A stretch of 64,000 bases of DNA from a virus. Shown here piece by piece: positions 23,239 to 62,545 of the stretch. Both the position numbers and the translations under genes were made by a program. The notes under the pieces were generated by a model that worked only from the letters and a program-made list of their open reading frames with translations, did not search any database and was not told where the DNA came from. Within the stretch, counting starts at the first letter, position 1. Each line of letters starts with the position of its first letter. The stretch lies in the IMG/VR virus record IMGVR_UViG_3300027857_000016, positions 15,999-79,998 of that record; one strand, written 5' to 3'.

Positions 23239-23378
23239 TTGTTCTAGTGACTGATTTAGGGTATAATAAGCACATAAATATTGTTGTGTCAGGCGCTACT
23301 TGCGATAGCCCTGACCGGATACGTCTGATAAGGAGACATATCGTGGATAGTTTACATCATCCTGCCCATTTTCAGCAA
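23239..23378 (-). ncRNA. Endonuclease leader cassette A: convergent promoters plus candidate antisense RNA
   Basis: Sense TTGTTC-17-TATAAT (23239-23267); bulged hairpin 23288-23315; RBS hairpin 23318-23342; antisense TTGCTG-18-TAAACT (23378-23349). Confidence 0.6.
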
Positions 23379-23990
23379 GCCTCTTCCTTTATCGATCCTC
23401 TTCAAGGCGCACAAGCAATCTCACAAGAAGAACGGTGGCTGCCCGTTGTAGGTTACGAAGGTTACTGTGAGATAAGTAATCTTGGCAATGTTCGTAGCCT
23501 TGGGCGTGTAGTGGAAAGACCTGTACGCGGAAATTACATCAAGCGTAACCGTACTCTCAAGCCACATCTAACGCCAAAGGGTTATGCCCGTATCCAGTTA
23601 AGCCGTGATGGAGTGTTGAAAAGTCATATGGTTCATAGACTTGTAGCCCAAGCCTTCATTCCCAATCCCTACGAATTGCCTGAAGTCAATCATAAAAATG
23701 GCATAAAGGTAGACAATCGGGTAGAAAATCTGGAATGGATAACATCTGCAGCAAACCAGGAACATGCCTACGAGATAGGACTAAGAGATCCTGTAACTAA
23801 ATATATTATCCATTGTAAAGAACTAGATATAACCACTAAAGGGACTACTAAGATGGCTGAAGCCCTTAGAGAGCGGGGTTATGTCACTGCTAACCCTGGT
23901 GCCATTTGGAATTGCATTTTTGGAACGAGTGCAACCCATTTAGGCTTGACTTTTACAGGTTCAAGGCTAGTAACCAACAGAGTTTCATGA
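23343..23990 (+). CDS. NUMOD4-HNH homing endonuclease
   Basis: ERWLPVVGYEG..ISNLGNVRS NUMOD4; VHRLVAQAFIPNP..VNHKNGIKVDNRVENLEW HNH; AGGAG RBS before GTG 23343. Confidence 0.92.
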   Translation: MDSLHHPAHFQQASSFIDPLQGAQAISQEERWLPVVGYEGYCEISNLGNVRSLGRVVERPVRGNYIKRNRTLKPHLTPKGYARIQLSRDGVLKSHMVHRLVAQAFIPNPYELPEVNHKNGIKVDNRVENLEWITSAANQEHAYEIGLRDPVTKYIIHCKELDITTKGTTKMAEALRERGYVTANPGAIWNCIFGTSATHLGLTFTGSRLVTNRVS

Positions 23991-24189
23991 AAATGGGGTT
24001 GAGGATATGACGCTCCCGCAGATTATTGAGATGTCTTGTGCTGACTGGCTCGCAGCTTCTGAGCGAAGCCAGATCGATCTCTCAAAAGGTCTTGAGATGA
24101 ACAAAGAGCGGTATCACATTGATGATCAACTGTTTCGGATTATCAAGAATACCATTAAGCAGTACGCACCAGAGAAAGATCTCGACTAA
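23980..24189 (+). pseudogene. Displaced 3' half of DUF5662-like gene
   Basis: EFHENGVEDMTLPQIIEMSCADWLAASERS aligns with EHYKNGINDMNLSDMMEMGCDWLAASSRS of 22763-23236. Confidence 0.8.
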
Positions 24190-24205
24190 ACAGGAGACAG
24201 ATATC

Positions 24206-24532
24206 ATGCGAACGTTTTTGCTCATGCGCTATGATAACCCATCGGCTCCCAGTTTCTTGGATGTAGAAGTGGCTGCTGAAGGAGTTATTTTTACCGAGAA
24301 GGTTGTGCTTTATCACCTCCATGATGAATCTATCACCATTTATGACTCAGTGGATGTCCTCAAAGGGACGTGGGTGGACGATGGCACACATTTCATCCAG
24401 TTCAAGGAGGGTATACCACTTCATGCCGTAGAGCGACATTTTACTCTGGCAGAGCAACAAGAGATTGTTCAGATCGTGGAGAAACACCTGAGACAACAAT
24501 TACGGTTACGTGGAAATACCTTGATGAAATGA
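24206..24532 (+). CDS. Hypothetical protein
   Basis: AGGAG RBS before ATG 24206. Confidence 0.65.
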   Translation: MRTFLLMRYDNPSAPSFLDVEVAAEGVIFTEKVVLYHLHDESITIYDSVDVLKGTWVDDGTHFIQFKEGIPLHAVERHFTLAEQQEIVQIVEKHLRQQLRLRGNTLMK

Positions 24533-24541
24533 GGGAAGTGG

Positions 24542-24790
24542 ATGGTGGAGCCGCCAATGGATCTACGTGTGTCAGTTGAGGGACCAGAATATCAGAAGGT
24601 GGTACATGGTGTGGGTCAACATGGCAACGGTGCCTGGTTTACGTTGACTGTTGCTGTTCCTGGCTGGACTGGTGACATCCCCTATTCCATGCTCACGGAT
24701 GTTCTTTTTAGCAGGCAGAGAGGGTCCCGGCATAGATTGCGCAAACGACCTGAGCGCATGAAGAAGAGGTGGAGGAGGGATATGCGATGA
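24542..24790 (+). CDS. Hypothetical protein
   Basis: GAGGG RBS. Confidence 0.55.
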   Translation: MVEPPMDLRVSVEGPEYQKVVHGVGQHGNGAWFTLTVAVPGWTGDIPYSMLTDVLFSRQRGSRHRLRKRPERMKKRWRRDMR

Positions 24791-24996
24791 AAGAGTTACC
24801 AGTTACGCAAACTGATACCCAACAGATCCCAATTCGATGTGAGACCACAGGCCGATTAGTAGCACGGGCAGATGAGCATGGCGTCTATTTCTTTTGTCGG
24901 CAACACAATACTCAACATCTGATGTCATGGACTGCATTGGAAAGATTAAGAGAAGATATTCGGTTGGGAGAAGTGAAGCCGAAGCAGATGGTGTGA
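24787..24996 (+). CDS. Small protein, possibly Mu Com-like zinc ribbon
   Basis: IRCETTGRLVA...FFCRQH; GGAGG RBS. Confidence 0.5.
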   Translation: MKELPVTQTDTQQIPIRCETTGRLVARADEHGVYFFCRQHNTQHLMSWTALERLREDIRLGEVKPKQMV

Positions 24997-25016
24997 GAGA
25001 ATATCAGCGTCATAAA

Positions 25017-25161
25017 TTGCCTTTTCAGGCGAATTCATGGTATAATGAGATTGGTTGATTGAGTTGTTGCCCTTGCGGTGATGGAAACACCCAAGGGCGT
25101 GATAGCAAGGAGTGACCCTTACTATGGATAGCACTATACCAGAAGGTTTTAAACGATGCAA
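25017..25161 (-). ncRNA. Endonuclease leader cassette B
   Basis: Sense TTGCCT-18-TATAAT; bulged hairpin 25069-25098; RBS hairpin 25102-25125; antisense TTGCAT-17-TATAGT with TG (25161-25133). Confidence 0.65.
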
Positions 25162-26239
25162 CAAATGTGATCTAGTGAAGCCGCTAGATGAGTTTTATAC
25201 GATGAAGAGGCCGAATGGGATAAGGAGTCCAAAGTACATATGTAAAGAGTGTGAGAATGTAGGATCTCAAAGCCGCTTCAAGCAAAAGAAAGTACAAGCA
25301 AACAAAAAGTGCGCCTATCCACCCTGTGATACTATCATTGTGCCTTCCGCAACTTATTGCTCTGCTCACTTCCGGTTAAACCCTGAAGAGGTTGAGCGAC
25401 GTGCTTCTAAATTCCCTCCTAAATCCACCTGCATTTTTCCTGGTTGTGGCAAACTAATCTCTCGCGGAGCATCATATTGTCATTATCACTATAATCGACG
25501 TGAACGATCCCACGTCACTAAATCTAAGATGTCTATGTCTGCTAAGAGACGAGCTAATACTCCAGAAGGCAGGGCAAGAATGTCTCAAGCTGCCAGCCTT
25601 GGAGGGAAAACATGGAAGGGACGGCACCACACACAGGAAACAAGAGATAAGATACGTGGAAAGCGTGCAATGCAAATTCTTTCTCGTGAAAGTCTGGAGA
25701 AGACGTGGAGTAAAACGCGAGGTCGACCTGGCAATCGTGGCGGTATCCCCCATACAGAGGAAGTAAAGGCGAGGATCTCAACAACCCTACAGTCTAAGCG
25801 AGAGCACTTATCGCGGAAGGGTAGAGAGCGTTATGAACGTGAGACAGAGGAGCAACGGGAAAAACGACTTAATCACTGGATACAGGCTGGACAAGAGAGT
25901 ATAGCTAAGATTTTTAGTGGTACTACCATCGAAATGTTTATTGCTCAGCAACTCGACACTCTAGGTATTGAGTATGAAATGCAAAAGAAGATTGGTTACT
26001 ATATTGCTGACTTTTGTATTCCTTCTCATATGATAGTGATAGAAGCAATGGGATGTTTCTGGCATGGGTGTGAGCAGTGTGGATATAATGAACCTTGGCA
26101 TATACTCAAGCGAGAGAAGGAGAAAGTGCGAACCGAAAGGATAGTGAAGAAGGGATATTCTGTTGTAGCCCTTTGGGAACACGAGATTCGTCGAGCAATG
26201 CAAGATAGCGGCTATATCTTGCAATTAGGAATTGAATAG
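25124..26239 (+). CDS. Zn-finger/NUMOD3 plus DUF559/Vsr-like endonuclease
   Basis: CxxC repeats, GRHHTQETRDKI NUMOD3, ADFCIP..VIEAMGCFWHG..LWEHEI nuclease. Confidence 0.85.
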   Translation: MDSTIPEGFKRCNKCDLVKPLDEFYTMKRPNGIRSPKYICKECENVGSQSRFKQKKVQANKKCAYPPCDTIIVPSATYCSAHFRLNPEEVERRASKFPPKSTCIFPGCGKLISRGASYCHYHYNRRERSHVTKSKMSMSAKRRANTPEGRARMSQAASLGGKTWKGRHHTQETRDKIRGKRAMQILSRESLEKTWSKTRGRPGNRGGIPHTEEVKARISTTLQSKREHLSRKGRERYERETEEQREKRLNHWIQAGQESIAKIFSGTTIEMFIAQQLDTLGIEYEMQKKIGYYIADFCIPSHMIVIEAMGCFWHGCEQCGYNEPWHILKREKEKVRTERIVKKGYSVVALWEHEIRRAMQDSGYILQLGIE

Positions 26240-26333
26240 GCTATACTCTAAAGTAACAAAATATAATTGATGAAGAGCCATAGCGTAAGACGCATAGGCC
26301 GTCCATTTCAAATTGAAGGGACGGCCCCTTTTT

Positions 26334-28187: not shown

Positions 28188-28189
28188 AC

Positions 28190-29965: not shown

Positions 29966-30016
29966 ATAAATAGTGTATCTATTAGTCCGATCTGGCTCAA
30001 GAAGCCGGTTTATCGG

Positions 30017-30145
30017 TTGACCTTAACAACAAAATAGAGTACAATGCATGTGGTTGTCTAGGGACGGATTGATCATCCGTTCCGAAGAAGCGTTACCTTG
30101 ACGCTCTGGCAACCACCACGATCAAGGTTAAACTTAAGGAGTTTA
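30017..30145 (+). ncRNA. Promoter plus three-way-junction/pseudoknot leader RNA
   Basis: TTGACC-17-TACAAT; P1 30050-30061/30106-30116; loop ACCTTGA complementary to TCAAGGT (30122-30128); SD hairpin 30129-30145. Confidence 0.6.
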
Positions 30146-30150
30146 GAACT

Positions 30151-31023
30151 ATGCCTCAGTGTGGCATCTATCAGATCGTAAACACGATCACTGGTGACTG
30201 TTATGTTGGCAGTGCTGTTAATTTTCATGTACGCAAATTGCGTCACCTCAACGAATTACGGCAAGGTATCCATCATTCTCTCCATCTCCAACGTGCATAC
30301 GATAAGTACGGCAAAGATGTCTTCGTTTTCACTTTTCTCGAAGATGTTATAAGAGATCGAGATACCCTCTTCCAGCGTGAAAGCCATTGGGTACAGCAAC
30401 TACATCCTCAGTACAACACAGGCAAAGTAAATGCAACTGCCCTTGGCGCGAAACGGACAGAAGAAACCCGTAAGCGCATAACTGAAAAAGCTACGGGACG
30501 GAAGCATTCTGAGGAAACTAGGCGAAAGCAATCAGAACGTAAGTTCGGTATCAAACAATCTCCCGAATTCATACAGAAGCGCTCAGAAGGCATGCTTGGT
30601 CACGCAGTTTCTGAGGAAAATCGCCAGAAATTTGCTGAAAGAAGTCGTGAGATGTGGGCAAATCGCACACCTGAAGAAAAGCGTGCGATTGTAGAAAAGC
30701 GTTCACCTGAAGTTCAAGAGAAGAATCGAGAACGAATGCGTGAACTTGGCAAAGATCCTGACAGGATTGCACATATCAAGCAAGTGCATTTGGGTGCCAA
30801 GCGGTCTGAAGAGACACGTCAGAAGCAACGTGAGGCGTGGGTAAGACGGAAACAAAGACAACTGGAGAATCCGAAACCTCCAGTAGAAAATACGCAGCCT
30901 CCCAAAGAGTATAAGTACTCTGAGGAGACTCGAAGAAGGATGTCTGAAGGGAAAAAGGCATCCTGGGACAAAAAGAAAGCCGCGCAAGCGGAAACGATAC
31001 AACAACAAAATCTGTTTGATTAA
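30151..31023 (+). CDS. GIY-YIG homing endonuclease with NUMOD3 repeats
   Basis: GIYQIVN..YVGSA..R..RH..LQRAYDKYG..PQYN; repeated KRSEETR.K. Confidence 0.93.
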   Translation: MPQCGIYQIVNTITGDCYVGSAVNFHVRKLRHLNELRQGIHHSLHLQRAYDKYGKDVFVFTFLEDVIRDRDTLFQRESHWVQQLHPQYNTGKVNATALGAKRTEETRKRITEKATGRKHSEETRRKQSERKFGIKQSPEFIQKRSEGMLGHAVSEENRQKFAERSREMWANRTPEEKRAIVEKRSPEVQEKNRERMRELGKDPDRIAHIKQVHLGAKRSEETRQKQREAWVRRKQRQLENPKPPVENTQPPKEYKYSEETRRRMSEGKKASWDKKKAAQAETIQQQNLFD

Positions 31024-31077
31024 CTCCTCTTCCTCCATTGGAACGAGTTAACAAACGTTCTAATGGAGGTTTCCTCT

Positions 31078-31425: not shown

Positions 31426-31465
31426 TCAGGGCATCCATGTGGGATGGAAGGGATGAGAGAGAACG

Positions 31466-32908: not shown

Positions 32909-32934
32909 ATCGAGGAAGAAGGAGGGGCATCATC

Positions 32935-33156: not shown

Positions 33157-33162
33157 GGGTGA

Positions 33163-34065: not shown

Positions 34066-34094
34066 TTCATGAGAGGTGAAGCATTTCAGAGGAC

Positions 34095-34409: not shown

Positions 34410-34457
34410 TATTTCACCTTGTTTTACCGTATATAAGTGATAGTGAGGAGATACAAT

Positions 34458-35032: not shown

Positions 35033-35074
35033 CCCGCTTTCAGGGGAAGTAGAGAGAAGAAGAGGAGAAATGTT

Positions 35075-37784: not shown

Positions 37785-37799
37785 TCATGAAAGCGTTGT

Positions 37800-44533: not shown

Positions 44534-46135
44534 ATGCCTATTTCGGCCACCGCTGCACGCGGAATCGTTGATATTATGCTAGAGGCGAATAACGGTGAAC
44601 AGTTATTACTTGCCTCTACTCCGGTTATTGCAACAATAACCGGCATCACTGCTCCTAGTGGTAGTACGGGTATGAGATTTCACATACGCATTACCAATTG
44701 GACGGCTTCTGGGACCGTGACGATTACTGGCACTGGCACACCAGGCAACACGGAGACCTACAACATTGCCGCTCCAACTGCTCAACAGACCCAGAGTGCG
44801 CAGTTAGCAAGCAATGAGTATGTCAGTGTGAATGCCTACACGGCAATCACGAATATTACCACCACTGGACTCACCAACGGCACTATCACTGTGTATGGTA
44901 TTTACGCTGGCAAGTTTACCGTGCCTTCCATCATGACCTCCAACCGTGTGGTGAAAGTCTATAGCCCGAACGAGCACAATAGTTTCCTGGAGCGTGACAA
45001 GAAGATCCTTCACCTTGTGAACAACACGACTGTTGATCTCAAGCAAGACGTCTACGCGGATTTGAGCTTGTGGTGGCCCTACATGATGATGGGGGCACCT
45101 ACCATCACGACGTTGCCATCCACACCCACGTCGCTCTTTGCTGCTGCTGCCATCTCGGCAACCCAGTCTCTGACGACACAGCCAACGGCACCGGGCATGA
45201 AGCTCATCTTTACCATTACTGCCTTTACCGTTGCAGGAACATTGACCATTGCCGGGACATCCTATGGTCAAGCAGTGACCGAAACAATTTCCATCACTGC
45301 TGCCGGTACCTACTACTCTAGCAATGTCTATTCTGCGGTGAATGCTTCTGGTATTACCAACGCCACGACGGCTGCGACGATGGCGATAACTGGCGTCTAT
45401 GGCTGGCAGTTGGTCTTCTTATCAGGCGGCAACCTCTATAGTGCAGCGATTGAGTGGTACGACGGTGCAGGCTCATGGACGCATCCATTCTCCTTCGCCA
45501 CTGAGGGCGATTTCGATATCAAGGTCCAGACGGAGGCGACCCTGACCCTCAAAGGCAAGGCACAAGACAAATTGCCAATTGGCGATAGAACGACGACCCC
45601 ACTTACGGGCGTGAATCGTATCGCCTCCATCGGTGCCAACCTCAACGATGAGCCAATTGTGGGATGGCAAAGTGCTGTGTATCTTGACCCTATTACGGGC
45701 ACGTCGCAAACGACCGCCTTTATACACTGCGAGGAGTTAAAGGTCGCCCTCAAGGTGCCGCAAGAAGATCATTTTACCTTTACGAATAGCCAGAACTACA
45801 ACAGGGCCTATGCCGTCAAGCGGGAATGCACCTGTGAGGCCGTCCTCGATTTCATCGATATGCTGCAGTGGGAACAATTCAGGCAAAACCTCAAGCAGTA
45901 CCTCGCCTTCCAGTTTTTGGGTCAGTACATCGGGACCACGGGTGGGTCAGCGCAATTCAAAAGTTGGACTTGGACGCTTCCTGTCCGAAGTGATGGGCAA
46001 TTCGATGTGACCTCTGATCCAGCAAAGGGCAACGTGCAAGCCAAGGCGATGTTTAGGACGGAATATGATTCGTCACTGGGGGGGAGCTACAAACTCGTGG
46101 TGGTTACACAACTTCCGCCTACCTACCCCGCGTGA
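44534..46135 (+). CDS. Major tail tube protein with two inserted domains
   Basis: Precedes chaperone and TMP; duplicated APxG.GM...IT..T..GT.TI.GT inserts. Confidence 0.8.
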   Translation: MPISATAARGIVDIMLEANNGEQLLLASTPVIATITGITAPSGSTGMRFHIRITNWTASGTVTITGTGTPGNTETYNIAAPTAQQTQSAQLASNEYVSVNAYTAITNITTTGLTNGTITVYGIYAGKFTVPSIMTSNRVVKVYSPNEHNSFLERDKKILHLVNNTTVDLKQDVYADLSLWWPYMMMGAPTITTLPSTPTSLFAAAAISATQSLTTQPTAPGMKLIFTITAFTVAGTLTIAGTSYGQAVTETISITAAGTYYSSNVYSAVNASGITNATTAATMAITGVYGWQLVFLSGGNLYSAAIEWYDGAGSWTHPFSFATEGDFDIKVQTEATLTLKGKAQDKLPIGDRTTTPLTGVNRIASIGANLNDEPIVGWQSAVYLDPITGTSQTTAFIHCEELKVALKVPQEDHFTFTNSQNYNRAYAVKRECTCEAVLDFIDMLQWEQFRQNLKQYLAFQFLGQYIGTTGGSAQFKSWTWTLPVRSDGQFDVTSDPAKGNVQAKAMFRTEYDSSLGGSYKLVVVTQLPPTYPA

Positions 46136-47052
46136 TCTGACCATAAAGTAGGAGCATCAGAAGGAGGTAATTTTTTTATGGCATTTCGCTTTTTGTGTGC
46201 TAAGGACATCTTAGCACGGGTTTCAGGCGAGGGTTTTCGCCCTCGACTAGCATTGCCTATGGCACGACAATGCTCTTCAGAAAGTTTCCTCCCTTTGAGC
46301 GAGGTGGACGTTTTTGCCCGTGTCTCATCTGACTTTTTCCGCCCTCTGCTTGCCTTAGCCATATTAGCACGGGCTTCAGCAGAAAAAGGTTTACGCTTTA
46401 CGCCTTTCTTTGCTTCAGATATGTTTTTGCATTCTTCCTGTGATTTCACACGTCCTTTATGGGCTTTTGAGATTTTAGCACGAGCTTCTAGTGAGGGCGT
46501 CACACCTTTCATGCCTGCTCGTATGTTTTCTTTCCATTCGGAAGAAAAAGGTGGGCGTTTTCGACCTTTTGTCGTAGCAGACATCTTAGCTTTGGTTTCA
46601 TCCGATAAATGCTTTCCCTTATTCGCTTCGGAAAGTCTTTGCGCTAAATCAGTTGTCGCGTACGCATTTCTCACGCTCGCAGAAATCTTTGCCCTGATCT
46701 CTGGTGTCAATGATTTCATTCCAATTCCACCCGGAGCTTCATTTGTGAGAGGTGCTCCTTGAGAACGGTAGTATTGAATCCAGTATTGCTCACGCTCTTG
46801 CCATTCATCGACAGAGACTTCATCGATGATATCCAGGAGTGGTTCCAATCCGAGCGATTTGAGATGTTTGACCCAGCGGCCTCTATGTGTCGCTTCTTCG
46901 CTATTCCTAATATGTACTCTCAATCGGTGCTGGGGATCATTCGACTTGCCCACGTATCGAACTTCGCGTGTGACAGGATCGCTAAGGATGTATATCCAGG
47001 TAGTTTGAGGGAGAGGGTTGTCCAATTGATCATGAGGTGGTACAGTGTCCAC
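46123..47052 (-). CDS. GIY-YIG homing endonuclease with NUMOD3 repeats
   Basis: WIYILSDP..RYVGKS..RLRVH..EQYWI..LTN; many GRK.S.ETRAKMS repeats; AGGAG RBS before GTG 47052; overlaps the tail tube stop. Confidence 0.9.
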   Translation of the reverse strand: MDTVPPHDQLDNPLPQTTWIYILSDPVTREVRYVGKSNDPQHRLRVHIRNSEEATHRGRWVKHLKSLGLEPLLDIIDEVSVDEWQEREQYWIQYYRSQGAPLTNEAPGGIGMKSLTPEIRAKISASVRNAYATTDLAQRLSEANKGKHLSDETKAKMSATTKGRKRPPFSSEWKENIRAGMKGVTPSLEARAKISKAHKGRVKSQEECKNISEAKKGVKRKPFSAEARANMAKASRGRKKSDETRAKTSTSLKGRKLSEEHCRAIGNASRGRKPSPETRAKMSLAHKKRNAIKKLPPSDAPTLWSDHAG

Positions 47053-47159
47053 GATATGTCTCCTTATACAGACGTATCCACGCCAGGGGATGGGTCCAAC
47101 CATCGCTCTGGCACAACATTTTACCTCCTCAGTATACCACATACCAAACATTCGTTCAA
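47018..47159 (+). ncRNA. Endonuclease leader cassette C
   Basis: Antisense TTGTCC-17-TACAGT with TG (47018-47046); RBS hairpin 47053-47078; bulged hairpin 47082-47112; sense TTGAAC-17-TATACT (47159-47131). Confidence 0.65.
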
Positions 47160-47895: not shown

Positions 47896-50800
47896 GTGGC
47901 AGCAGGTGACATCGCAATACAAATGACGATCACGGCGGTGGATGCCGCGTCATCGATTGTGGGGAATATCGCTGACAGCCTCTCAAAACTTCCTGGTGGA
48001 CTGGGAGTAGTGGCTGGTGCTGCGGTCGCGGCTGGTGCTGCCATTGTGGGTATCGGGGCGAGCGCTGCCACTGCTGCTGGAAATTTTGAACAATCTATGG
48101 AGCGTCTTGTGACGAGCGCGGGAGAGTCACAAAACAACATCAAGATGCTCAGTGACGGTATTCTGCAAATGTCGGTTGATACGGGCACATCTACGGATCA
48201 GCTCGCTGCCGGAATGTATTATATCGAGAGCAGCGGCATCCGCGCCGCCAGCGGCCTTGCTGCCCTGAAGGTGGCTGCGGAGGGTGCAAAGTCAGAAAAT
48301 GCCGACCTGACCACTGTTTCCAAGGCACTCACGGCGGTCCTCACTGACTATCACATGAAAGTTGATGATGCGGCATCTGCAACGGCGTCATCAACTGCTG
48401 TGATGAACGGTTTAATTAAGATAGTCCAGAATGGGAAGACTAACCTTCAGGAATTAAGTGCATCTATGGGGGCGGTTCTCCCAACTGCTTCCTCTCTGGG
48501 TATCTCATTCTCACAAGTAGCCGGTGTGATGGATGTTATGACGAATGCCAGCATTCCTGCCCAACAGGCTGCGCAAAACCTTAGCCACGTACTCCTTGCG
48601 CTCTCTGCACCCGCTGCCAAGGCGGTAACTGCGATGAAGGATGTTGGACTCTCTGCTCAAGAAGTGAAAGATGCTCTGGTGACCAAAGGACTTCCTGCGG
48701 CTCTTCAATTGATCGAAGACCACATCGGCAAACACCTCCCGGCAGGTTCCTATCAGGCTGAACAGGCCCTCAAAGCAATTACGGGCGGTATTATGGGCTT
48801 CAAGGAGGCAGCAATTCTTACCGGGCCGAATCTCAAAGTTGCGGAGGACGATATCAAAGCCGTTGCTGCCGCAATGGGGGATGCCAGTAATGGCGTCATG
48901 GGATGGGATATTGTTCAGGGCGAGTTCAACTTCAAGCTGGACCAGGCAAAGGCCGCTCTCAATGCTTTCATGATTGCCATTGGAGAGAAATTGTTGCCGC
49001 TTCTTACCCCGCTCGTTGAGGGGTTTACCAACTTTGTCTCTACCATTACGCAGTGGGTACAGGGGATCGGAGATGCCACAGCATCTGGGTCGAAGTTCAA
49101 TGACATCGGGCAACTCATCACCAGTACGTTTACTATTATAAGTAATATCTTCTTCCATATCGGGGAGATTCTTCACACCATTTTCGCGCCTGCCTTTGAG
49201 ATGGCGCAGACCGCCATCAGCAACTTCATGAACAATGGCCTTGCACAGGTTCTTGAAGGGCTGAACATGTTTCTTCTGAGAATTGATCAGGCGGTGGGAG
49301 CCTTCTCCAAGTGGCTTGCTGCGTCCGGGTTGGTGCAGAATGCACTCCAAGCCATAGGGGAGGTCATCACCCTTGTCTCCTCCTCTTTTGACAGTCTCAC
49401 GTCCTCCGCTTTTAGCTGGGGGGCGAACATGATGACAGGCTTCGAAAACGGGATCATCTCTGTCATCAATAACATTATCTCCGTGGTAGAGCAGGTTGCC
49501 CAAGAAATCGCCAATTATCTCGGATTTGGATCACCTACCAAAAAAGGGCCAGGGTCCACGCTCAATTCCTGGGGCCAGGGTATGATGCAGGGTCTAGCTC
49601 AAGGAATCACTGCAAGCATACCACTTGTCACCACTGCTGTGAATCAGGTGGCGGGAACACTCAGCGGAGCATTATCAGGAAGCGGTGGAACGGGGATACC
49701 ATCCGCCAGTTCCATGATGATCGACCCGCTGACAGGAGATAAGCGCAAAGTTACGGAAACATCCAATGCCAGAACTTCTACCAACGCGATCAAAGGGTCT
49801 GGTAATGCCATCACGAGCAGTCTTTCATCGGGGATATCGTCAGGGACGAGTCATGTGAGTACTGCGGTCAATGCTGTTGGATCACAGTTGAGCACCCTTT
49901 GTAGTAAGCATGCCCAGTCTACCAGCAACTGCGCTGCGCATGCACTTACCACAGGACTTGCCGCCAAACTGCATGCAGGAAAGGGTGTTGTGGGGGCAGC
50001 AGCTCATGCCGTTGGGTCACAACTCTCAGCCGTCGATAAAGCCGCTGAAGCAGCCGCGAAGAGGGCAGCGGCTGCAAAGCTTGCGGCAGAGAAAAAGGCA
50101 GCAGCAGAAGCCGCCAAAGCCGCGAAGGCAGCAGCGAAACTGGGACCAGCACCGGTAGCAGGAGCCTCGCCCGTACAAGATATCTTAGGCAGTGATGCGA
50201 TCCAGAAGGCGGTAGCACCTATCACAAAGGCGGCACAAGATGCTGCCAAGGCGGTCACAGGGGCACTTGGACCCGCTGCGACCTTCGTCAAAAACGCGTG
50301 GAAGGACGTGTCAGCATTCTTTACACAAGTTGCGGCAAACCTGAAACAGGCATGGCAGTCGATGCTGCCAGGATTGCAGGATATCTGGCGAGTTGTCCAG
50401 CAACAACTGGTTCCAGCACTGAAGGAACTCTGGACCTCGATTCAGCCAGGTGTCGCGCTTATTGGACAAATAGCTGGTGGACTCGTCGTGGGTGCCGTTG
50501 CATTTGCGAAATGGGCCACCTCTGCCAGTACGCTCAAGCCCATCTGGGATTTTTTGGTCGTTACGACAAAGATTATTATCTCGATTCTCTCAACGCTCAT
50601 CCATACCATTGCTGATGCCCTTGCACCTGTCTTCAAGCAACTCTCAGATACGTTCAATTCACAGCTCAAGCCAGCATGGGATGACATGATAAAGTCCATT
50701 CAACCATCGATCCCATTTTGGACGATGCTTGCCCATGCGATTGGTGGACTCCTCGTCATTGCTATTGGCGTACTCATGGCGGTTTTAGGCGGAGTGATTA

Positions 50801-52854
50801 AAGGTCTTGGAGGGCTTTTGGCAGGTCTCATTCAAGCCGTTGGGGGCATCGTCCAGATCGTGAGTGGGTTCGTTCAAATCATTAGTGGCATTCTTGCCAT
50901 GATCTACGACCTGTTCACCGGCAATTGGAGCAAACTGCAAAAGGATAATGATACTGTCTGGAATGGCATCGTCGATGTGATCAAGGGTGTCTGGAACCTC
51001 ATTGTCGGCATCTTCAAGGGGGCCATTGATTTCGTCGTAGGAACGACCACGGGGTTCGTTCAAACGATCATCAAGTTTTTCCAAAACCTCTCTGATACCC
51101 TGGTTGGACACTCCATTATCCCTGATATGGTCAATGGCATCATTTGGTATTTCAAAGACCTCTGGAAAAATATCGTGACGCTGGTTTCTGATCTTGTGAA
51201 ATGGGTGATCAAGCAGTTCCTCGTCCTCCGAGACCAGGCATTTGTCTACTGGAATGCTCTCTATACAGGAATCGTCGATGTACTGAAGCTTATTCAGAAC
51301 GGCGTCCAATATGCCATCTCCTTTATCGTGAACTGGCTCCAGAAGCAGTGGCAGACCCTACAGACAAACGTCAAGACGGCATGGGACGCCGTCAACTCAG
51401 GGATTACCGCCGTACTAAAACTCATCCAGAACGGTATCCAATCAGCGATCACCTCCATTCTCATCTGGCTCCAGAAGCAGTGGCAAGCGTTCCAGACGAA
51501 TGTGCAGCTCGCATGGACCGGAGTGCAGAACATCATCAAGAATGCGACGGCAGGGATCTCGACGTGGCTCGGGACGTGGATCGGCGGACTTATCGCCAGT
51601 GCCGTACAGTGGGGGACGAACCTTATGAAGTCGTTCGCCGACTCGATCACCAAGGGGGTCGCATCGGTAACGACAGCGGTGACGGGCGTTGCCAACAAGA
51701 TCAAAGCCTTCCTGGGCATTCATTCCCCAGCGGAAGAGGGTCCGCTTTCAACCTCCGACCAATGGATGCCTCATTTTATGGCGATGCTTGCGAACGGAAT
51801 CAAGGCAAACACTCCGAAGGTGACGGTTGCCGTTACCGGGGTCGCCACTCAATTTACTACCCTGAATAAGCAGGCCGATACCTCCGTCAACGCCATAAAC
51901 ACGAAAATAGGAACGCTGAGCACAACCTTTTCGACAACGAGCAGCAAAATAACCTCCAATTTGAATATCCTTACGTCGCAGATCAAGACTTCATCTGATA
52001 ACATCAACCGATCGGTGCAGAGCGTCTCCTCGAATACGGAAACGGTCAGTAGCCAGGTAGGGTCAAGTTGGCACTACATCGGGTGGGTCTGCACCACATC
52101 GAGCACGCTCGTCCAGCAAGCAAACACTGACACAGCAAGGAGTTGCCAACAAGCCTCTTCACAAGTCTCTATCACGATCGGTGACACAAAAGCTGATTAC
52201 GTGTCATTCGAGGAAACCGTCAATACCACCATGCGGGGAATCACGAAAAACATGGACGATGGGTTGGCAAACTTTAATGGCACCATGTCCAAGTGGAGCG
52301 ACGGCATGAAGCAGTGGACCGACGACCTCCAGAAGAACCTCAACGGCTTTTTCGATAGCAACGGACCAACCAGTAAGGCGATCACGAAGTGGATGGACGA
52401 TATGCAGCAGAAGTTGAATACATGGAAGGATAACCTCTTCAAAACCATAGGCGACTCTGTGAGCAATTTCTTTTCGAATATGAATAAATCCTTTGCTCAA
52501 GGTATCCAAGCCGCGCAATCCGCTGCACAGCAGATCGCCAACCTGCTCGGACACAGTAAGCCGAAGGAGGGACCCCTCAAGGATGACGATGAGTGGGGAG
52601 AACACTTCATCCACAACATCGTCAAGGGGATACGTTCTGGTATCCCTGAAGTGCAAGCAGTCTCCAATCAGTTGGCGGGGATACTGGTTGGCGGTCTTGC
52701 GCCTTCTTCTAGCGCCTTCGCCCTTCCAGGAGGCAGGTCACCAGGGAACCCCATGATGATCTATGTCTCCCTTGATGGCAAAACCATTGGAAAGTGTGTT
52801 ACCAAATATCAAGAGAGGGAGCTAAGAGTCCAAGGAGTGGTTCGCAACACATAA
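47896..52854 (+). CDS. Tape measure protein (TP901-like N-terminus)
   Basis: 1652 aa, Ala/Gly-rich amphipathic repeats, C-terminal IYVSLDGKTI. Confidence 0.95.
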   Translation: MAAGDIAIQMTITAVDAASSIVGNIADSLSKLPGGLGVVAGAAVAAGAAIVGIGASAATAAGNFEQSMERLVTSAGESQNNIKMLSDGILQMSVDTGTSTDQLAAGMYYIESSGIRAASGLAALKVAAEGAKSENADLTTVSKALTAVLTDYHMKVDDAASATASSTAVMNGLIKIVQNGKTNLQELSASMGAVLPTASSLGISFSQVAGVMDVMTNASIPAQQAAQNLSHVLLALSAPAAKAVTAMKDVGLSAQEVKDALVTKGLPAALQLIEDHIGKHLPAGSYQAEQALKAITGGIMGFKEAAILTGPNLKVAEDDIKAVAAAMGDASNGVMGWDIVQGEFNFKLDQAKAALNAFMIAIGEKLLPLLTPLVEGFTNFVSTITQWVQGIGDATASGSKFNDIGQLITSTFTIISNIFFHIGEILHTIFAPAFEMAQTAISNFMNNGLAQVLEGLNMFLLRIDQAVGAFSKWLAASGLVQNALQAIGEVITLVSSSFDSLTSSAFSWGANMMTGFENGIISVINNIISVVEQVAQEIANYLGFGSPTKKGPGSTLNSWGQGMMQGLAQGITASIPLVTTAVNQVAGTLSGALSGSGGTGIPSASSMMIDPLTGDKRKVTETSNARTSTNAIKGSGNAITSSLSSGISSGTSHVSTAVNAVGSQLSTLCSKHAQSTSNCAAHALTTGLAAKLHAGKGVVGAAAHAVGSQLSAVDKAAEAAAKRAAAAKLAAEKKAAAEAAKAAKAAAKLGPAPVAGASPVQDILGSDAIQKAVAPITKAAQDAAKAVTGALGPAATFVKNAWKDVSAFFTQVAANLKQAWQSMLPGLQDIWRVVQQQLVPALKELWTSIQPGVALIGQIAGGLVVGAVAFAKWATSASTLKPIWDFLVVTTKIIISILSTLIHTIADALAPVFKQLSDTFNSQLKPAWDDMIKSIQPSIPFWTMLAHAIGGLLVIAIGVLMAVLGGVIKGLGGLLAGLIQAVGGIVQIVSGFVQIISGILAMIYDLFTGNWSKLQKDNDTVWNGIVDVIKGVWNLIVGIFKGAIDFVVGTTTGFVQTIIKFFQNLSDTLVGHSIIPDMVNGIIWYFKDLWKNIVTLVSDLVKWVIKQFLVLRDQAFVYWNALYTGIVDVLKLIQNGVQYAISFIVNWLQKQWQTLQTNVKTAWDAVNSGITAVLKLIQNGIQSAITSILIWLQKQWQAFQTNVQLAWTGVQNIIKNATAGISTWLGTWIGGLIASAVQWGTNLMKSFADSITKGVASVTTAVTGVANKIKAFLGIHSPAEEGPLSTSDQWMPHFMAMLANGIKANTPKVTVAVTGVATQFTTLNKQADTSVNAINTKIGTLSTTFSTTSSKITSNLNILTSQIKTSSDNINRSVQSVSSNTETVSSQVGSSWHYIGWVCTTSSTLVQQANTDTARSCQQASSQVSITIGDTKADYVSFEETVNTTMRGITKNMDDGLANFNGTMSKWSDGMKQWTDDLQKNLNGFFDSNGPTSKAITKWMDDMQQKLNTWKDNLFKTIGDSVSNFFSNMNKSFAQGIQAAQSAAQQIANLLGHSKPKEGPLKDDDEWGEHFIHNIVKGIRSGIPEVQAVSNQLAGILVGGLAPSSSAFALPGGRSPGNPMMIYVSLDGKTIGKCVTKYQERELRVQGVVRNT

Positions 52855-52897
52855 TAATACAAGTATTGTATATGTGGAAGGGAGTAAGATGTAATAC

Positions 52898-55816: not shown

Positions 55817-55832
55817 ATGGGAGGTAAAAGAG

Positions 55833-56591: not shown

Positions 56592-56656
56592 ACATCATAG
56601 TTATACTGCAACTTTGACGAGGAGGATCGGTAGAGAAGGTATGTACGTGGGGGTAG

Positions 56657-57247: not shown

Positions 57248-57248
57248 C

Positions 57249-60053
57249 ATGACGGCTCTCACTGAATATCTTACAGTTACCGTTGCCACGACCGTTGCGA
57301 CAGCCAACACGCTGATCGAGAACGCCACCACGGGCGCAACACTGCTCAACAAGAATACCAATCTCACGTCTGGCACGACTGGATGGATTGAAATTCTCTC
57401 GCAAGGCGGAACCTTTGGTGCGGGCGTTGGGTCGGAACCTGCACCTTCTGCGAAAGGATGGATTGACGACGGGACAGGTCTCGTTGGAAATCACTTCTCA
57501 GCGGGTACGTGGAGCTTCTCGCTGGGATTCGAAACCACTACCACTGGAACATTCACCGCTGATGTTCACTTTAGAGCATACCAAAGATCGTCAGGTGGCA
57601 CCTATACCCTGATAGCAGAAGCCACCGCTTCTGGACAAACCATTATCTCCACCAGCTATACGGTCGTCAATGCCTCAGTCAGTGCCGCTGCATCTGCCAC
57701 GTTTGTGACCGGGGACAAACTCTACATTGACTGCCTCATGAATATTTCCACGAATGGGACGACTGGAAATATGCGCATGCAGGATGCCAATAGCGCTACC
57801 GTTGGCTCTACCAGTGCGCAGGCAGTCACACCAGGATATATCTCCAGTACTCAGGTCAACAAGGATATCGTCATTCGTGGACGTATCCAACAACTCATCA
57901 ATAAAGATGTTGTGCTTCGTGGACGTATCCAGCAACTGGTCAATAAAGACATCAAGTTGCGTGGCAATGTTGGATTGTCAGCCACCAAAGACATCAAGTT
58001 GCGTGGTGTGATTGCCGCGTCAGGGATCAAGGACATCAGGGTCCGTGGACGCATCCAACAACTGGTTAGCAAGGATATCACGCTCAGAGGACGTACGGCG
58101 AATACGGTGAGCAAGGATATCGCGCTCAGAGGGAAGATTACCGGTCCACCCCTGACTTCCGGTGGATTCACTCTTTTTGCTAACGGCACCGGAACCGCAC
58201 AATACGACCACTTCAGAGTAACTGAGTATCCAGATCCTGCCCTTAGCTTAGCACCGATTACGCCGCGAGTAGGGACAACGCTGGTCTCGTGGAACGCACT
58301 CACACCGACCAATACCACTCTTGGAATGGATATCAGTCTGGATGGGGTCAACTGGACGGATGTCACATCAGGGAACAATGGGAGTCTGCCGGGGATTTAC
58401 TCACAGGTTGATCCCGTAACCGATGGCTTTGATATGGACACCACGATCAACTACACCTCTACGTTCCGCACAGGCGGATCAGTTGCGATCATTACCTATG
58501 ATACCCTTCATAGTCGGCTCATCCTCACTGGCGGGACGAATGCCATCTATGCCTATTCTGCCATCAGTCGCGCCGATGTGGACTTCTTTGCAGACCTAGA
58601 CCAAAGCGATGCAGGCGGTTTGGTCTGGCGCTTCGTGGATCAGAATAATTACTATTGGCTAGACATTAACGATAGCCTCACCAGCATTGGAGCAAATACC
58701 ATCACGCTCTATAAGGTAGCATCCAACGTTCAAACACAACTCGGAACCGCTGCTATTTCCTATACCGTGGGAACATCCTCCAATAACTATACCGTCACTT
58801 TCACCAGAGGAACCTACCACCGTTTCCGGGTCTCCATGCTCATGGGTGTAATCACCGTCTATGTGGACGGGAATGCACTCATTACGTATACCGATGGCTC
58901 ACCACTAGGCGCTGGTCTGATGGGTCTCTACAACAACGGTGGGACGATAGGGAGCAGGTACTACCAGTTGTGGATGACGCCCCAAGGAGATTACGTCACA
59001 GGTACTCCCGTTTACGACATCGTTACAGGTGATTTCGTGTACACCAGGGCACGCCTGGCAACCACTGACCCAAGCGTCACTCCTCAAGTCCTGGATATGA
59101 CCACGATGGCAATGACACCAGCTATTGGAGCAGGGTCTAGTATTCCATCGGTGACCTATAACGCCACGCTTGTCAGTAAAAACTTCGATGACCTGGCAAA
59201 ACAGAGCAATTATAGTTGGTACATTGACCAAAATAAGACGTTCAACTTCCGCTCACGTGCTTCTATTGCGGCTCCCTGGATCTTGCAGTCATCTCCATAC
59301 GGGTTGGTCGCAAACGTAGACCTGGAAGTGTCTTCAAACCTTGAGTTGGATGTTGGCAATGACCTCTATCGCAATCGTCAGATCGTGCTCGGAGCAACGG
59401 ATACCGCTACCTTCGTCGAAACCAAGATCGGCGATGGGAACACGCGTTCCTGGACAATGGGGTATCCATTGGCAGCACAACCGACCATCACCCTCAACGG
59501 CGTTGTCATTGCTTCTACGCAAATAGCGCTCAAGGGTGGGACAGGTGCAACCTTTTACTATGCGCTGAACGACCCTGTGATTACGGAGGATGCGGGAAAG
59601 ACGGTTCTGCAAGCGACTGATCAGCTCGTCGTCACCTACACAGGTCTCTTCGATGTGACCATCACGGTGGATGATCTCACGGAACAGGCAGAGCAGCAGG
59701 CTATTGAGGGCGGAACAGGCATCGTGGAAAGCGTGGTGGATGTGACGGGGCAAGGGTACAACAAGAGTGCCGCCACGGCACTTGCCAACCAACTCTTGAG
59801 CCGATATGGCATCGCAGGACGCACGCTCATCTTCGACACGACACGGAATGGGTTAGCTGTGGGGCAACTGTTGAGTATATTCCTACCCGAGCAGGGCATC
59901 TTTGATGGGCAATTTTTCATCACACAAGTAGAAATTACCCTGATGAAGGGGGGAGCAGACAGTCAGATATGGTGGTACAAGGTCACGGCATCTGAACTAC
60001 CCAAACAGGCTTCATGGGCCAAACTTCTGGCATCAGGTTTAGGGCTACAGTAG
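57249..60053 (+). CDS. Tail protein: adhesin domain, 14-aa repeats, hub C-terminal part
   Basis: FDDLAKQSNYSWYIDQNKTFNF..YRNRQIV..GLAVGQLLSI..FFITQVEI. Confidence 0.8.
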   Translation: MTALTEYLTVTVATTVATANTLIENATTGATLLNKNTNLTSGTTGWIEILSQGGTFGAGVGSEPAPSAKGWIDDGTGLVGNHFSAGTWSFSLGFETTTTGTFTADVHFRAYQRSSGGTYTLIAEATASGQTIISTSYTVVNASVSAAASATFVTGDKLYIDCLMNISTNGTTGNMRMQDANSATVGSTSAQAVTPGYISSTQVNKDIVIRGRIQQLINKDVVLRGRIQQLVNKDIKLRGNVGLSATKDIKLRGVIAASGIKDIRVRGRIQQLVSKDITLRGRTANTVSKDIALRGKITGPPLTSGGFTLFANGTGTAQYDHFRVTEYPDPALSLAPITPRVGTTLVSWNALTPTNTTLGMDISLDGVNWTDVTSGNNGSLPGIYSQVDPVTDGFDMDTTINYTSTFRTGGSVAIITYDTLHSRLILTGGTNAIYAYSAISRADVDFFADLDQSDAGGLVWRFVDQNNYYWLDINDSLTSIGANTITLYKVASNVQTQLGTAAISYTVGTSSNNYTVTFTRGTYHRFRVSMLMGVITVYVDGNALITYTDGSPLGAGLMGLYNNGGTIGSRYYQLWMTPQGDYVTGTPVYDIVTGDFVYTRARLATTDPSVTPQVLDMTTMAMTPAIGAGSSIPSVTYNATLVSKNFDDLAKQSNYSWYIDQNKTFNFRSRASIAAPWILQSSPYGLVANVDLEVSSNLELDVGNDLYRNRQIVLGATDTATFVETKIGDGNTRSWTMGYPLAAQPTITLNGVVIASTQIALKGGTGATFYYALNDPVITEDAGKTVLQATDQLVVTYTGLFDVTITVDDLTEQAEQQAIEGGTGIVESVVDVTGQGYNKSAATALANQLLSRYGIAGRTLIFDTTRNGLAVGQLLSIFLPEQGIFDGQFFITQVEITLMKGGADSQIWWYKVTASELPKQASWAKLLASGLGLQ
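57846..58139 (+). repeat. Seven tandem 42-bp (14-aa) repeats
   Basis: xxxxxKD[IV]x[LIV]RGxx x7. Confidence 0.9.
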
Positions 60054-60110
60054 TTTTGTAGGTGTGTCAAAGATAGGGGATGTGTGGTTAGCGGAACGGG
60101 AAACAAAGAC

Positions 60111-60473
60111 ATGCAGGCACCACAAGATCAGGTAGCACTGTTGCAATTTCGCGTCGATGCACTTGAACGAACCGTGTCGGGGTTTAATCAGCAACTCAAT
60201 TCCTACGTGCGAGAGCGGGAAAATGACCTGAAGCTCAAAATACTGCAAGATACCGCCAATCATATTGAAGATGAGGTAAACGGTCTCAAAAAAGATATCC
60301 GTTCGCAAGGCGATGAGGTGAAGATGCTCAAAGATGAGTTGCAAAAGCGCGATGCATCTCAACGCGAAAGCCAGGATAAACTCCAAATCCGCGTACTCGT
60401 CTGGGCGGTAGGTATCTTCATGAGTATCGTTTTGCTGCTCCTAGCAGCGTATTTCTCACATATTCTGCACTAA
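60111..60473 (+). CDS. Coiled-coil plus C-terminal TM protein (holin/XhlA-like)
   Basis: Coil followed by VLVWAVGIFMSIVLLLLAAYF; start may be 60084. Confidence 0.65.
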   Translation: MQAPQDQVALLQFRVDALERTVSGFNQQLNSYVRERENDLKLKILQDTANHIEDEVNGLKKDIRSQGDEVKMLKDELQKRDASQRESQDKLQIRVLVWAVGIFMSIVLLLLAAYFSHILH

Positions 60474-60484
60474 AGAGGTGTCTT

Positions 60485-61135
60485 ATGAGAGCACGCGTAC
60501 AGAAAACGACCGTGATGGTGGTTGTCCCGACCATCCTCTTCCTGTTACTCATGCTTATAGGTTTCGATCTCTATCCCGTGGTATCGGGAAATGATGAATT
60601 GGTTATTGAACAGCAAGCCTGGCTTCAGGTGGTACGGAATGAATATCTTGCCAAGGATATCCTTATTCTTGCGTATAGACCTGCCACCTATCACTCTCAG
60701 GCGGTGAGCGATCTCCAGGTCATTCTCCCTGGCCTCCAGCAAACACAGACTGGACTCCTGAAAGGTGACGCTTCTCTCGGACTTCCAAACAATCCATCGG
60801 ATGAGGTCAGACAGATACTCCAACGAGCACAATCTGACTACGTTCCTCTTGTGGCAGCACTCAAGGTCATTCTCGCCCATTCTGATGGACCGGTTGACCC
60901 AATACAACTTAACATTGTCATGATGCATGAGTATCCCTATTCCGTCACGATGGCTCAACTTGCTATCCTCATTCAGCAACAGGCGGAGGCAACCAATCTT
61001 CACCTCCTCATCATTAAGATAAGCATCAAGACGCTGCTTCTTGTAGTGATTAGTGCGCACTATCTGTTCTCAGGGAGAAAGGCGTTCAATAGACTGGTGG
61101 AGATAGAAGAGGAGGCGCAGAAGAAGCAAGCGTAG
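60485..61135 (+). CDS. 2-TM protein with extracytoplasmic helical bundle
   Basis: TM-helical domain-TM, sensor-domain-like. Confidence 0.7.
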   Translation: MRARVQKTTVMVVVPTILFLLLMLIGFDLYPVVSGNDELVIEQQAWLQVVRNEYLAKDILILAYRPATYHSQAVSDLQVILPGLQQTQTGLLKGDASLGLPNNPSDEVRQILQRAQSDYVPLVAALKVILAHSDGPVDPIQLNIVMMHEYPYSVTMAQLAILIQQQAEATNLHLLIIKISIKTLLLVVISAHYLFSGRKAFNRLVEIEEEAQKKQA

Positions 61136-61241
61136 GGTGAGGGTGTGAGTTAGTTGGCACATCCTCTGAAATTCGTTCGCAGTGTGAACAGATGCTACAA
61201 TAGAGAGTGAGGATGTTGTTGGAAGATGAGAGGATGACCAT

Positions 61242-61538
61242 ATGGCGGCTGACGCTCAAAAATTAACTCAGATCACCCTTATCTGTGATGACAAAGGCTA
61301 TGGGGGCTACCAACCTGGAGAAGTGGGGAGAGTCAAAGATGGGGTCTGGATGGTATGTTGCCCTCTTTGCAATAATTTGGGGGAACTGAGAACTCACCAC
61401 GTCACAGAACATGACGACCAGACCATCACTATCTCTCCATCGCTAGTATGTCACGGGTCAATCTACGAATCCCCTGGTGTCTACCGCTCTTGTACTGCCC
61501 ACTACTTTGTTGAGCGCAATCAGATCAGGTGGTGTTAG
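61242..61538 (+). CDS. DUF6527-like small Cys/His protein
   Basis: CCPLC..TITISPSLVC..CTAHYFVERNQIRW. Confidence 0.65.
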   Translation: MAADAQKLTQITLICDDKGYGGYQPGEVGRVKDGVWMVCCPLCNNLGELRTHHVTEHDDQTITISPSLVCHGSIYESPGVYRSCTAHYFVERNQIRWC

Positions 61539-61575
61539 TATGTCTGACTCTGCTTATGTAACTGCCTACATCCAA

Positions 61576-62454
61576 TCAGAACAACCTACCCCCTTCCGGC
61601 CATTCATGTGGCAACTTATCATGCTTACTCAGATTACATGTAGGACAAGACAGGACAACATAATCAACATCGTTGCGCGGACCCTCCTCAATGCGACTCA
61701 AAGGGATGGTATGCTCCAAGTGGAAAATGTATTGTCCATTCTTCTTCTCAAACTTAGCATGATCACAAGCACTATAGTAGCATCTGTACTTCTGTGCTTT
61801 CAACTTTTGTTGGATTTGTTGTTCAGTAAGAATACCAGGAATAGCTTTCTTTCGTGCTCCACGATTGTGATTATAGGTTTTGTATTTATCTGGATTGTTT
61901 TTACAATATGCACGCAGCCGTTGCTTATTCTCTTCAGCATGAGAGTTTCGATAGGCTTTCTGCCTAATCGCATCGTCCTCACGAAACATCTCATGATAAG
62001 TCTTACGTTCGATACTAGCACACAGCTTACATCTCGTTTGCACTCCATAACGATGAGTTTTGCTCACATGAAAGTATTCACGCGTAGCAGGCAAAATCCT
62101 TTTACATTTAATACATCTTTTATGTCCCATTTCAATAATTTCAACTTCTCTTCTGCGTGGCGTGGCAACACATTTTTTACACCAAGGAAACAAACCATCG
62201 GAACGGTTTCTGTCAGAATGAAAGAATTCAGATGTGGAAGGGTGCCAATTCTTACACTTGGTACACCGTTTTTCCCCCAATCGATATTCTCGAACTATGC
62301 TGTAACTCTTATTGCCTTTGCATATCTTACAACTGGAATGAAAGCCATCCTTCTTTCTGCTGTCTTTGTGAAAGTAGATGTTTGTTGCGGGGAAAAGTTC
62401 TTTACATTTGGAACATTGCTTGAAAGAGGATGTATCGGGTATAGTGTCGCTCAT
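61576..62454 (-). CDS. HNH endonuclease with three N-terminal Zn-finger repeats
   Basis: 3x KxCxKCK..P.T...FH.....G....CK.C; HLEHTIPLSR..SCPTCNLSKH. Confidence 0.9.
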   Translation of the reverse strand: MSDTIPDTSSFKQCSKCKELFPATNIYFHKDSRKKDGFHSSCKICKGNKSYSIVREYRLGEKRCTKCKNWHPSTSEFFHSDRNRSDGLFPWCKKCVATPRRREVEIIEMGHKRCIKCKRILPATREYFHVSKTHRYGVQTRCKLCASIERKTYHEMFREDDAIRQKAYRNSHAEENKQRLRAYCKNNPDKYKTYNHNRGARKKAIPGILTEQQIQQKLKAQKYRCYYSACDHAKFEKKNGQYIFHLEHTIPLSRIEEGPRNDVDYVVLSCPTCNLSKHDKLPHEWPEGGRLF

Positions 62455-62545
62455 GGAAGATCTCCCAGGTCTTTCATCACGCCAGAGGGTATGTCCAGTA
62501 CCGCTCTGGCAACAATATTTCTCAATACATCAATTATATCACAAA
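62416..62545 (+). ncRNA. Endonuclease leader cassette D
   Basis: Antisense TTGCTT-18-TATAGT (62416-62445); RBS hairpin 62453-62477; bulged hairpin 62481-62510; sense extended -10 TGATATAAT (minus, 62541-62533). Confidence 0.65.

Follow-up and report, generated by a model that had tools for sequence, protein, structure and literature searches.

Unrelated nuclease genes of an uncultured phage share a two-hairpin leader cassette that probably acts as a cis-antisense control

Sequence comparison places a copy of the same portable cassette, roughly 110 bp in length, at the head of each of four nuclease genes in an uncultured phage, and we think it probable that the cassette is a cis-antisense control of nuclease translation, of the type represented by RNA-OUT of the insertion sequence IS10. 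The phage is known from an 80 kb virus record recovered from a soil metagenome (IMGVR_UViG_3300027857_000016); the window analysed here is the 64,000-nucleotide stretch at bases 15999–79998 of that record, and coordinates refer to the window. A search of sequencing runs for the phage listed one soil DNA run and no RNA run. The four genes, classified with Pfam, are A (NUMOD4 and HNH_3; 23343–23990, plus strand, GTG start at 23343), B (Vsr/DUF559-like and NUMOD3; 25124–26239, plus strand, ATG start at 25124), C (GIY-YIG and NUMOD3; 46123–47052, minus strand, GTG start at 47052) and D (zinc-ribbon repeats and HNH; 61576–62454, minus strand, ATG start at 62454).

Read along the gene, the cassette comprises a sense promoter, a leader of 18–22 nt, a bulged hairpin (hairpin 1), a spacer of 2–4 nt, a second hairpin (hairpin 2) and an inner −10 box on the opposite strand. 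The two promoter boxes face each other, about 86 bp apart. The sense promoter is of a strong, near-consensus sigma-70 type (TGGTATAAT; TTGCnn or TTGnnn, a 17–18-nt spacer and TGG-TATAAT), and a promoter of this type heads all 31 copies that we aligned from this phage and other contigs. Hairpin 2 is present in every copy as an inverted repeat of 8–11 bp between hairpin 1 and the start codon; it encloses the Shine–Dalgarno (SD) sequence and ends at the start codon. Comparison of the copies establishes this layout and the covariation of the stems, and it shows which strand folds and where the inner box lies.

In cassette A, the sense promoter occupies 23239–23267 on the plus strand (TTGTTC, spacer, GGG-TATAAT, with the −10 element at 23262–23267). 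The remaining parts are given on the antisense strand, here minus: hairpin 1 at 23288–23315, read as the 3′ stem-loop of the predicted antisense RNA; hairpin 2 at 23318–23342, with 9 bp, covering the SD (AAGGAG), abutting the start codon and pairing G·U where the sense strand has C·A; and the antisense −10 box TAAACT at 23349–23354, in codons 3–4, with an antisense start predicted near 23342. Cassette B has its sense promoter at 25017–25046 on the plus strand (TTGCCT-18-TATAAT with a TG extension) and, on the minus strand, hairpin 1 at 25069–25098, hairpin 2 at 25102–25125 (covering the SD together with the first two bases, AU, of the start codon) and an extended −10 box, TGG-TATAGT, at 25133–25138, where the sense sequence ACTATACCA provides codons for T-I-P. 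The orientation is reversed in the other two. Cassette C has a sense promoter at 47131–47159 on the minus strand (TTGAAC-17-TATACT with a TG extension), and plus-strand hairpins at 47082–47112 (hairpin 1, in which an A·C mismatch of the gene strand becomes G·U) and 47053–47078 (hairpin 2, over the SD), with the extended −10 box TGG-TACAGT at 47041–47046, in codons 3–4. In cassette D, the sense promoter is at 62533–62561 on the minus strand (TAGCTT, spacer, TGA-TATAAT), and hairpin 1 (62481–62510), hairpin 2 (62453–62477; an antisense stem of 11 bp that takes in both SD and start codon) and the −10 box GGG-TATAGT (62440–62445, codons T-I-P) are on the plus strand.

Hairpin 1 had been picked out at these four sites by a first-pass annotation, which described two short stems separated by a single bulged C, and this anatomy is confirmed. 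On the gene strand, copy A has stems of 6 and 4 bp on either side of the bulged C and a loop of 7 nt, copies B and D have stems of 7 and 4 bp and a loop of 7 nt, and copy C has stems of 7 and 5 bp, a loop of 6 nt and one A·C mismatch in the outer stem. RNAalifold recovers hairpin 1 unaided. The annotation also described a TGTT context and a distance of about 25 nt to the start codon; each hairpin 1 in the window indeed follows TGTT(G/GT), with its 3′ end 25–29 nt from the start codon, but the TGTT context, although it holds for the four window copies, is not universal outside this genome. No named family had been assigned, in agreement with Rfam 15, in which no family reached its gathering score in the window on either strand, and nothing relevant appeared at E values of up to 5 for the window cassettes or six foreign loci. 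Literature searches found no description of this cassette. Two parts of the earlier description have to be revised. The hairpin was taken to be a complete unit, and it is one module of the roughly 110 bp cassette; it was also taken to be a stand-alone 5′ untranslated region (UTR) hairpin on the coding strand, which the pairing pattern described below does not bear out.

We searched for further copies in IMG/VR and metagenome contigs using a model of the hairpin and two DNA patterns that did not require the stems to pair. A covariance model trained on copies B, C and D and one foreign copy returned A as the best non-training match in the 80 kb genome, in which nothing else scored, and the hairpin model matched strong copies in other phage contigs (E values of 1e-11 to 1e-20). 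The pattern matches fell into two clean groups: those with perfectly paired stems and a nuclease gene behind them, and unpaired chance matches. In total we found about 39 distinct cassettes in uncultured phage and metagenome contigs. All 15 strong model matches in eight whole virus records precede nuclease genes, and 32 of the 34 downstream proteins that were checked are nucleases, the other two having no recognised family. As a negative control, the promoter-plus-hairpin pattern was run over 596 Gb of prokaryote genomes; it matched ten times, with all ten matches unpaired and none before a nuclease gene. Among cultured phages, a blastn search of 50,697 phage records with positions 23000–26300 as the query found HNH coding cores only, with zero cassette matches and no close relative.

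The stems covary strongly, and the idea of one element common to several nuclease superfamilies holds more widely than the four types in the window (NUMOD4 with HNH_3, Vsr/DUF559 with NUMOD3, GIY-YIG with NUMOD3, and HNH). Six families are represented, including LAGLIDADG and endonuclease VII; the downstream types are HNH, HNH_3 with or without AP2 or HTH, endonuclease VII, GIY-YIG with or without NUMOD3, LAGLIDADG_3 and Vsr-like. By this comparison, the element is specific to genes of the homing-endonuclease type; it is not universal among them, because two GIY-YIG genes of the same phage have other leaders.

The substitutions in the stems indicate which strand carries the fold. Counted over 27 unique copies, all found by patterns without a pairing requirement, hairpin 1 on the gene strand has 281 Watson–Crick pairs, 15 A·C pairs, no G·U pair and no other type of mismatch. 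We place the selected, conserved fold on the strand opposite the nuclease gene, because a transition in a paired stem yields G·U or A·C equally, RNA tolerates G·U, and every A·C on the sense strand is a G·U on the antisense strand. A plain MAFFT alignment of 31 copies, not fitted to any model, gives the same direction: 96.6% of the hairpin 1 cells are paired in the antisense orientation versus 92.0% in the sense orientation, and single-sided changes of the G·U type occur in the antisense orientation only, apart from two cells that we ascribe to alignment artefacts. Whichever orientation is used, 8 of the 11 hairpin 1 pairs have changed on both sides in a compensatory way, a level of covariation that none of 500 shuffles reached. 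Selection on the structure, which the first-pass annotation had proposed from four copies, is therefore supported by the larger set.

Hairpin 2 shows the same asymmetry. Its antisense fold contains 245 Watson–Crick and 42 G·U pairs and no A·C mismatch, whereas 23 of the 25 1 × 1 mismatches in the sense fold are A·C. The mean z-score is −4.1 for the antisense fold versus −1.4 for the sense fold, which is weak (mean of −6.5 kcal/mol), and the antisense fold is the more stable one in 28 of the 31 copies. A model of both hairpins trained on 14 copies recovered 22 further copies. The resulting 36-row alignment, itself fitted to the model, has 97% of its cells paired, with double changes at 17 of the 20 pairs (every one of the 9 in hairpin 2, 8 of the 11 in hairpin 1). 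There are 175 compensated cells compared with 47 ± 6 in shuffled alignments (0 of 500 as high), and slid controls reach at most 45%.

The inner box provides a possible start for a transcript of the antisense strand. A TAnnnT hexamer preceded by GG, of the form (T/G)GG-TAnnnT, lies on the opposite strand within codons 3–6 in 31 of 31 copies and points back; its 3′ end is 6–10 nt from the A of the start codon in every one, and boxes of this kind hardly occur in the remainder of the first 55 nt of the genes. It is the same kind of extended −10 element as that of the forward promoter of the cassette, TGG-TATAAT. The nucleases, although unrelated, have an odd common N terminus (MD-TIP, MS-DTIP, MDIL-P and similar), and the corresponding DNA (ACTATACC, ATTCTACC or AGTTTACC) reads on the other strand as (T/G)GG-TATAGT, -TAGAAT or -TAAACT. 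The codons concerned are rare: ATA accounts for 14 of the 25 isoleucine codons at codons 2–8, compared with 13.7% in the long genes of the phage. The first paired base of hairpin 2 on the antisense strand lies 7–8 nt past the box in 30 of 31 copies and is a purine in 27 of 31. The base of the helix follows the box and not the start codon, such that where the box is 3 nt deeper in the gene, the base has moved as well. As this gap is the canonical distance to a start site, the predicted RNA would begin with a 5′-terminal hairpin bearing the anti-SD sequence, and the transcript would be complementary to the SD and the start codon. The promoter call rests on positional conservation, and the sigma-70-type rules behind it may not be those of the host.

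On these grounds we propose the following mechanism, in which the production of the RNA, its end and the repression are inferred. Host RNA polymerase would initiate from the inner box, where hairpin 2 has its base, and produce an antisense RNA of about 70–80 nt that folds into two stem-loops and is the exact complement of the start codon, ribosome site and 5′ leader of the nuclease mRNA. Pairing would probably start at the loops of hairpin 1, because the loop in the mRNA carries a YUNR U-turn motif (at loop positions 1–4 in 27 of 31 copies). The stem of hairpin 1 in the antisense RNA also has a conserved bulge, and bulges and YUNR loops aid rapid loop–loop pairing in CopA/CopT, hok/Sok and RNA-OUT. 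Pairing would block ribosome binding and may trigger decay, so that nuclease output stays low or is shut off as the genome copy number rises. The asymmetry between G·U pairs in the antisense RNA and A·C mismatches in the sense RNA would keep the former stable and leave the hairpin over the ribosome-binding site (RBS) of the mRNA weak.

Several observations weigh against this proposal. The inner box has no conserved −35 element, which is why the inner promoters are missed by a simple scan for two promoter hexamers. In the antisense direction, a consensus scan found no canonical terminator, that is, a hairpin followed by a U-tract, 3′ of hairpin 1; the sequence there is an A/C-rich spacer of 4–6 nt followed by a U-rich stretch that starts 5–7 nt after hairpin 1. 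Conservation of the loop (YUGGAMR) and of the invariant G-C-G/C-C at the bulge goes beyond what pure antisense pairing needs, and a protein partner is possible. Finally, the two GIY-YIG genes mentioned above manage without a cassette.

Convergent promoters only about 86 bp apart could act mainly through transcriptional interference, by collision or occlusion, or the outward promoter could feed neighbouring phage genes, in which case the hairpins would only stabilise, pause or end the outward transcript. The lack of a clear terminator fits such a role, as does the fact that the outward transcripts in C and D are co-directional with the flanking phage genes. We nevertheless consider it unlikely. 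The outward promoter in A and B points against its neighbours, so feeding them cannot be its general role, and a 5′-terminal anti-SD hairpin, a bulged second hairpin and a YUNR target loop together make up the classic kit of pairing antisense RNAs such as CopA/CopT, hok/Sok and RNA-OUT.

It is also conceivable, and we judge it quite improbable, that hairpin 1 acts on the mRNA as a 5′-UTR operator to which a shared phage or host protein binds through the bulge and loop, timing or limiting translation of the nucleases. Conservation of the YUGGAMR loop and of the G-C-G/C-C bulge junction while the stems vary is typical of protein-binding hairpins, and the hairpin still forms on the mRNA, where 92% of the cells are paired. 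CsrA, which binds GGA in hairpin loops, is a candidate for such a protein; a GGA loop about 25–35 nt upstream of the AAGGAG ribosome site would fit its two-site geometry. However, 15 A·C pairs and no G·U on the mRNA strand indicate selection on the opposite strand. An operator also leaves unexplained the asymmetry of hairpin 2, the backward-pointing inner −10 box and the way in which that box and the base of hairpin 2 keep together, and copies of the A type lack GGA (loops CTTGCGA and CGCTAA) and yet have YUNR. On account of those copies and of the antisense fold, we set aside the combination of GGA loop and SD as a CsrA site. Formation of the hairpins in single-stranded DNA of the template strand, in the service of a DNA transaction of the mobile unit (homing, recombination or replication priming), is highly improbable: G·T is the best tolerated mismatch in DNA, such that strand asymmetry alone cannot separate RNA from single-stranded DNA, and the cassette travels within the inserted nuclease segment, but the interval between promoter box and base of hairpin 2 is precisely the canonical one for a transcription start, which argues for a transcript, hairpin 2 is built around a translation signal, the ribosome site, and no HUH, Y1 or integrase gene accompanies the units.

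Other identities for the hairpins were tried and rejected. They are not intrinsic terminators, as no U-tract follows directly on either strand, and the consensus terminator scan called none of the four hairpins on either strand. A role as a 5′ stabiliser was rejected because the mRNA leader ahead of hairpin 1, of about 12–15 nt, is too long. An RBS-sequestering hairpin of the T-even type was rejected because hairpin 2 in the sense orientation is weak, with A·C mismatches, and the one internal promoter box is directed against the gene. Resemblances to N4-type promoter hairpins, integron attC sites and lambda nut/boxB were dropped because the loop size, R-box and boxA features are absent.

If the antisense reading is correct, the cassette has counterparts in several known systems. 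Cis-antisense RNAs over the 5′ UTR and RBS of a harmful gene are found in type I toxin–antitoxin and plasmid copy-control systems (hok/Sok, SymE/SymR and CopA/CopT), with which the cassette shares bulged stems and a YUNR U-turn loop for fast loop–loop recognition. It differs from them in the class of gene and in its setting, in having no logic of post-segregational killing and in being portable across six nuclease families. The closest precedent is IS10, in which a 69-nt RNA, whose promoter lies within the transposase gene, pairs over the translation initiation region and keeps ribosomes off, an effect that grows with copy number (PMC5006887). As in the RNA-OUT/RNA-IN pair of IS10/Tn10 (PMC5006887), the gene belongs to a selfish element and encodes a DNA-cutting enzyme, an inward promoter in the first codons faces that of the gene itself, and a short, stably folded antisense RNA (predicted here) is complementary to the translation initiation region. 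RNA-OUT, however, is a single 69-nt hairpin that overlaps the mRNA by 35 nt (PMC5006887), whereas the cassette has two hairpins over the whole 5′ UTR of about 70–75 nt. There is no sequence similarity between the two; the genes are phage homing endonucleases instead of a transposase, and the cassette is known from sequence alone.

Homing-endonuclease genes of T-even phages and Aeh1 (I-TevI, I-TevII, I-TevIII, segB and mobE) have RBS-sequestering hairpins with embedded late promoters (PMC2988022). There too, unrelated homing endonucleases of one phage are placed under one design of RBS hairpin and promoter placement, but the hairpins in those phages work on the mRNA in cis, with an internal promoter that is co-directional with the gene (PMC2988022). 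In the cassette, A·C mismatches weaken the mRNA hairpin, it is the antisense strand that folds stably, and the inner promoter is directed against the gene. One antisense RNA overlapping a homing-endonuclease gene has been described from a phage, namely CfrI of cyanophage S-PM2 (Millard et al. 2010, as cited in PMC12197685). As portrayed in that secondary account, CfrI is one long transcript linking psbA to F-CphI, and not a repeated leader cassette with a covarying fold (PMC12197685).

How phages restrain their own selfish nucleases is understood in detail for just a few genes of T4. A portable brake of the antisense type, common to HNH, GIY-YIG, LAGLIDADG, endonuclease VII and Vsr-like enzymes, would extend to homing endonucleases a logic known from transposons and toxin genes, and would explain the odd common 'TIP' N termini of unrelated nucleases. 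More tentatively, and with somewhat less than even confidence, we suggest that antisense governor cassettes may be a general and undescribed rule of phage homing-endonuclease biology, with the same two-hairpin, face-to-face-promoter design in unrelated lineages, each with its own promoter type (the sigma-70 extended −10 type here), and every nuclease family exchanged behind it. The cassette offers a small, modular part for regulation, and its sequence can mark nuclease genes, new ones included, when uncultured phages are annotated. If the suggested rule holds, the cassette could serve as a beacon for new nuclease families, for example, those of the unassigned proteins of loci L042 (5137–5511, 125 amino acids) and L043 (168–803, 212 amino acids). 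Both are encoded behind bona fide cassettes and have no match in Pfam, among PHROG functions or in the PDB; they are candidates for new nuclease families, and the cassette is the only sign of this.

Some copies depart from the common layout. At locus L020 (1399–2215), the start codon of the cassette opens only a 22-codon frame (MDILSP...), followed by an endonuclease VII gene with its own SD; a tRNA gene (2142–2215) lies between the endonuclease VII unit and the next cassette. Locus L102 has, at about 1600–1700 on the minus strand, an additional hairpin (GGAGCAACCG...CGGTTGTTCC) downstream of the forward promoter and ahead of hairpin 1, and its leader is 40 nt long compared with the usual 18–22 nt. 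The spacer of the forward promoter often contains a short palindrome, for example, GCCTTTTCAGGC at 25019–25030 of the window and at the matching site in other copies. These inverted repeats were noted by eye and are inconsistent between copies and strands; they may be an operator or chance.

The window also contains phage genes for the large terminase (11980–13386), portal (18830–22063), tape measure (47896–52854) and amidase (62613–63569) proteins, and nuclease gene B is followed by its own intrinsic terminator (26298–26325). The leaders of the two GIY-YIG genes without a cassette are of other kinds. One gene (1215–619 on the minus strand, within the region 619–1264; the true start is probably the ATG at 1215) has the promoter TTGATT-17-TATAGT and, immediately after it, a 14-bp A/U-rich hairpin (1264–1234); this hairpin has one G·U pair on the gene's own strand, which makes it a 5′-terminal hairpin of the sense strand. 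The other, which encodes GIY-YIG and NUMOD3 (30151–31023, within the region 30017–31023 on the plus strand), has the promoter TTGACC-17-TACAAT and a leader of about 100 nt with several inverted repeats ahead of the SD, unlike the cassette. Finally, the last 64 or so codons of a DUF5662 gene are present twice on the plus strand, at 22763–23236 and 23974–24186, flanking cassette and nuclease A. The nuclease A unit seems to have been inserted along with a replacement 3′ end of the DUF5662 gene that it invaded, because both copies of that end match the single DUF5662 gene of a related contig.

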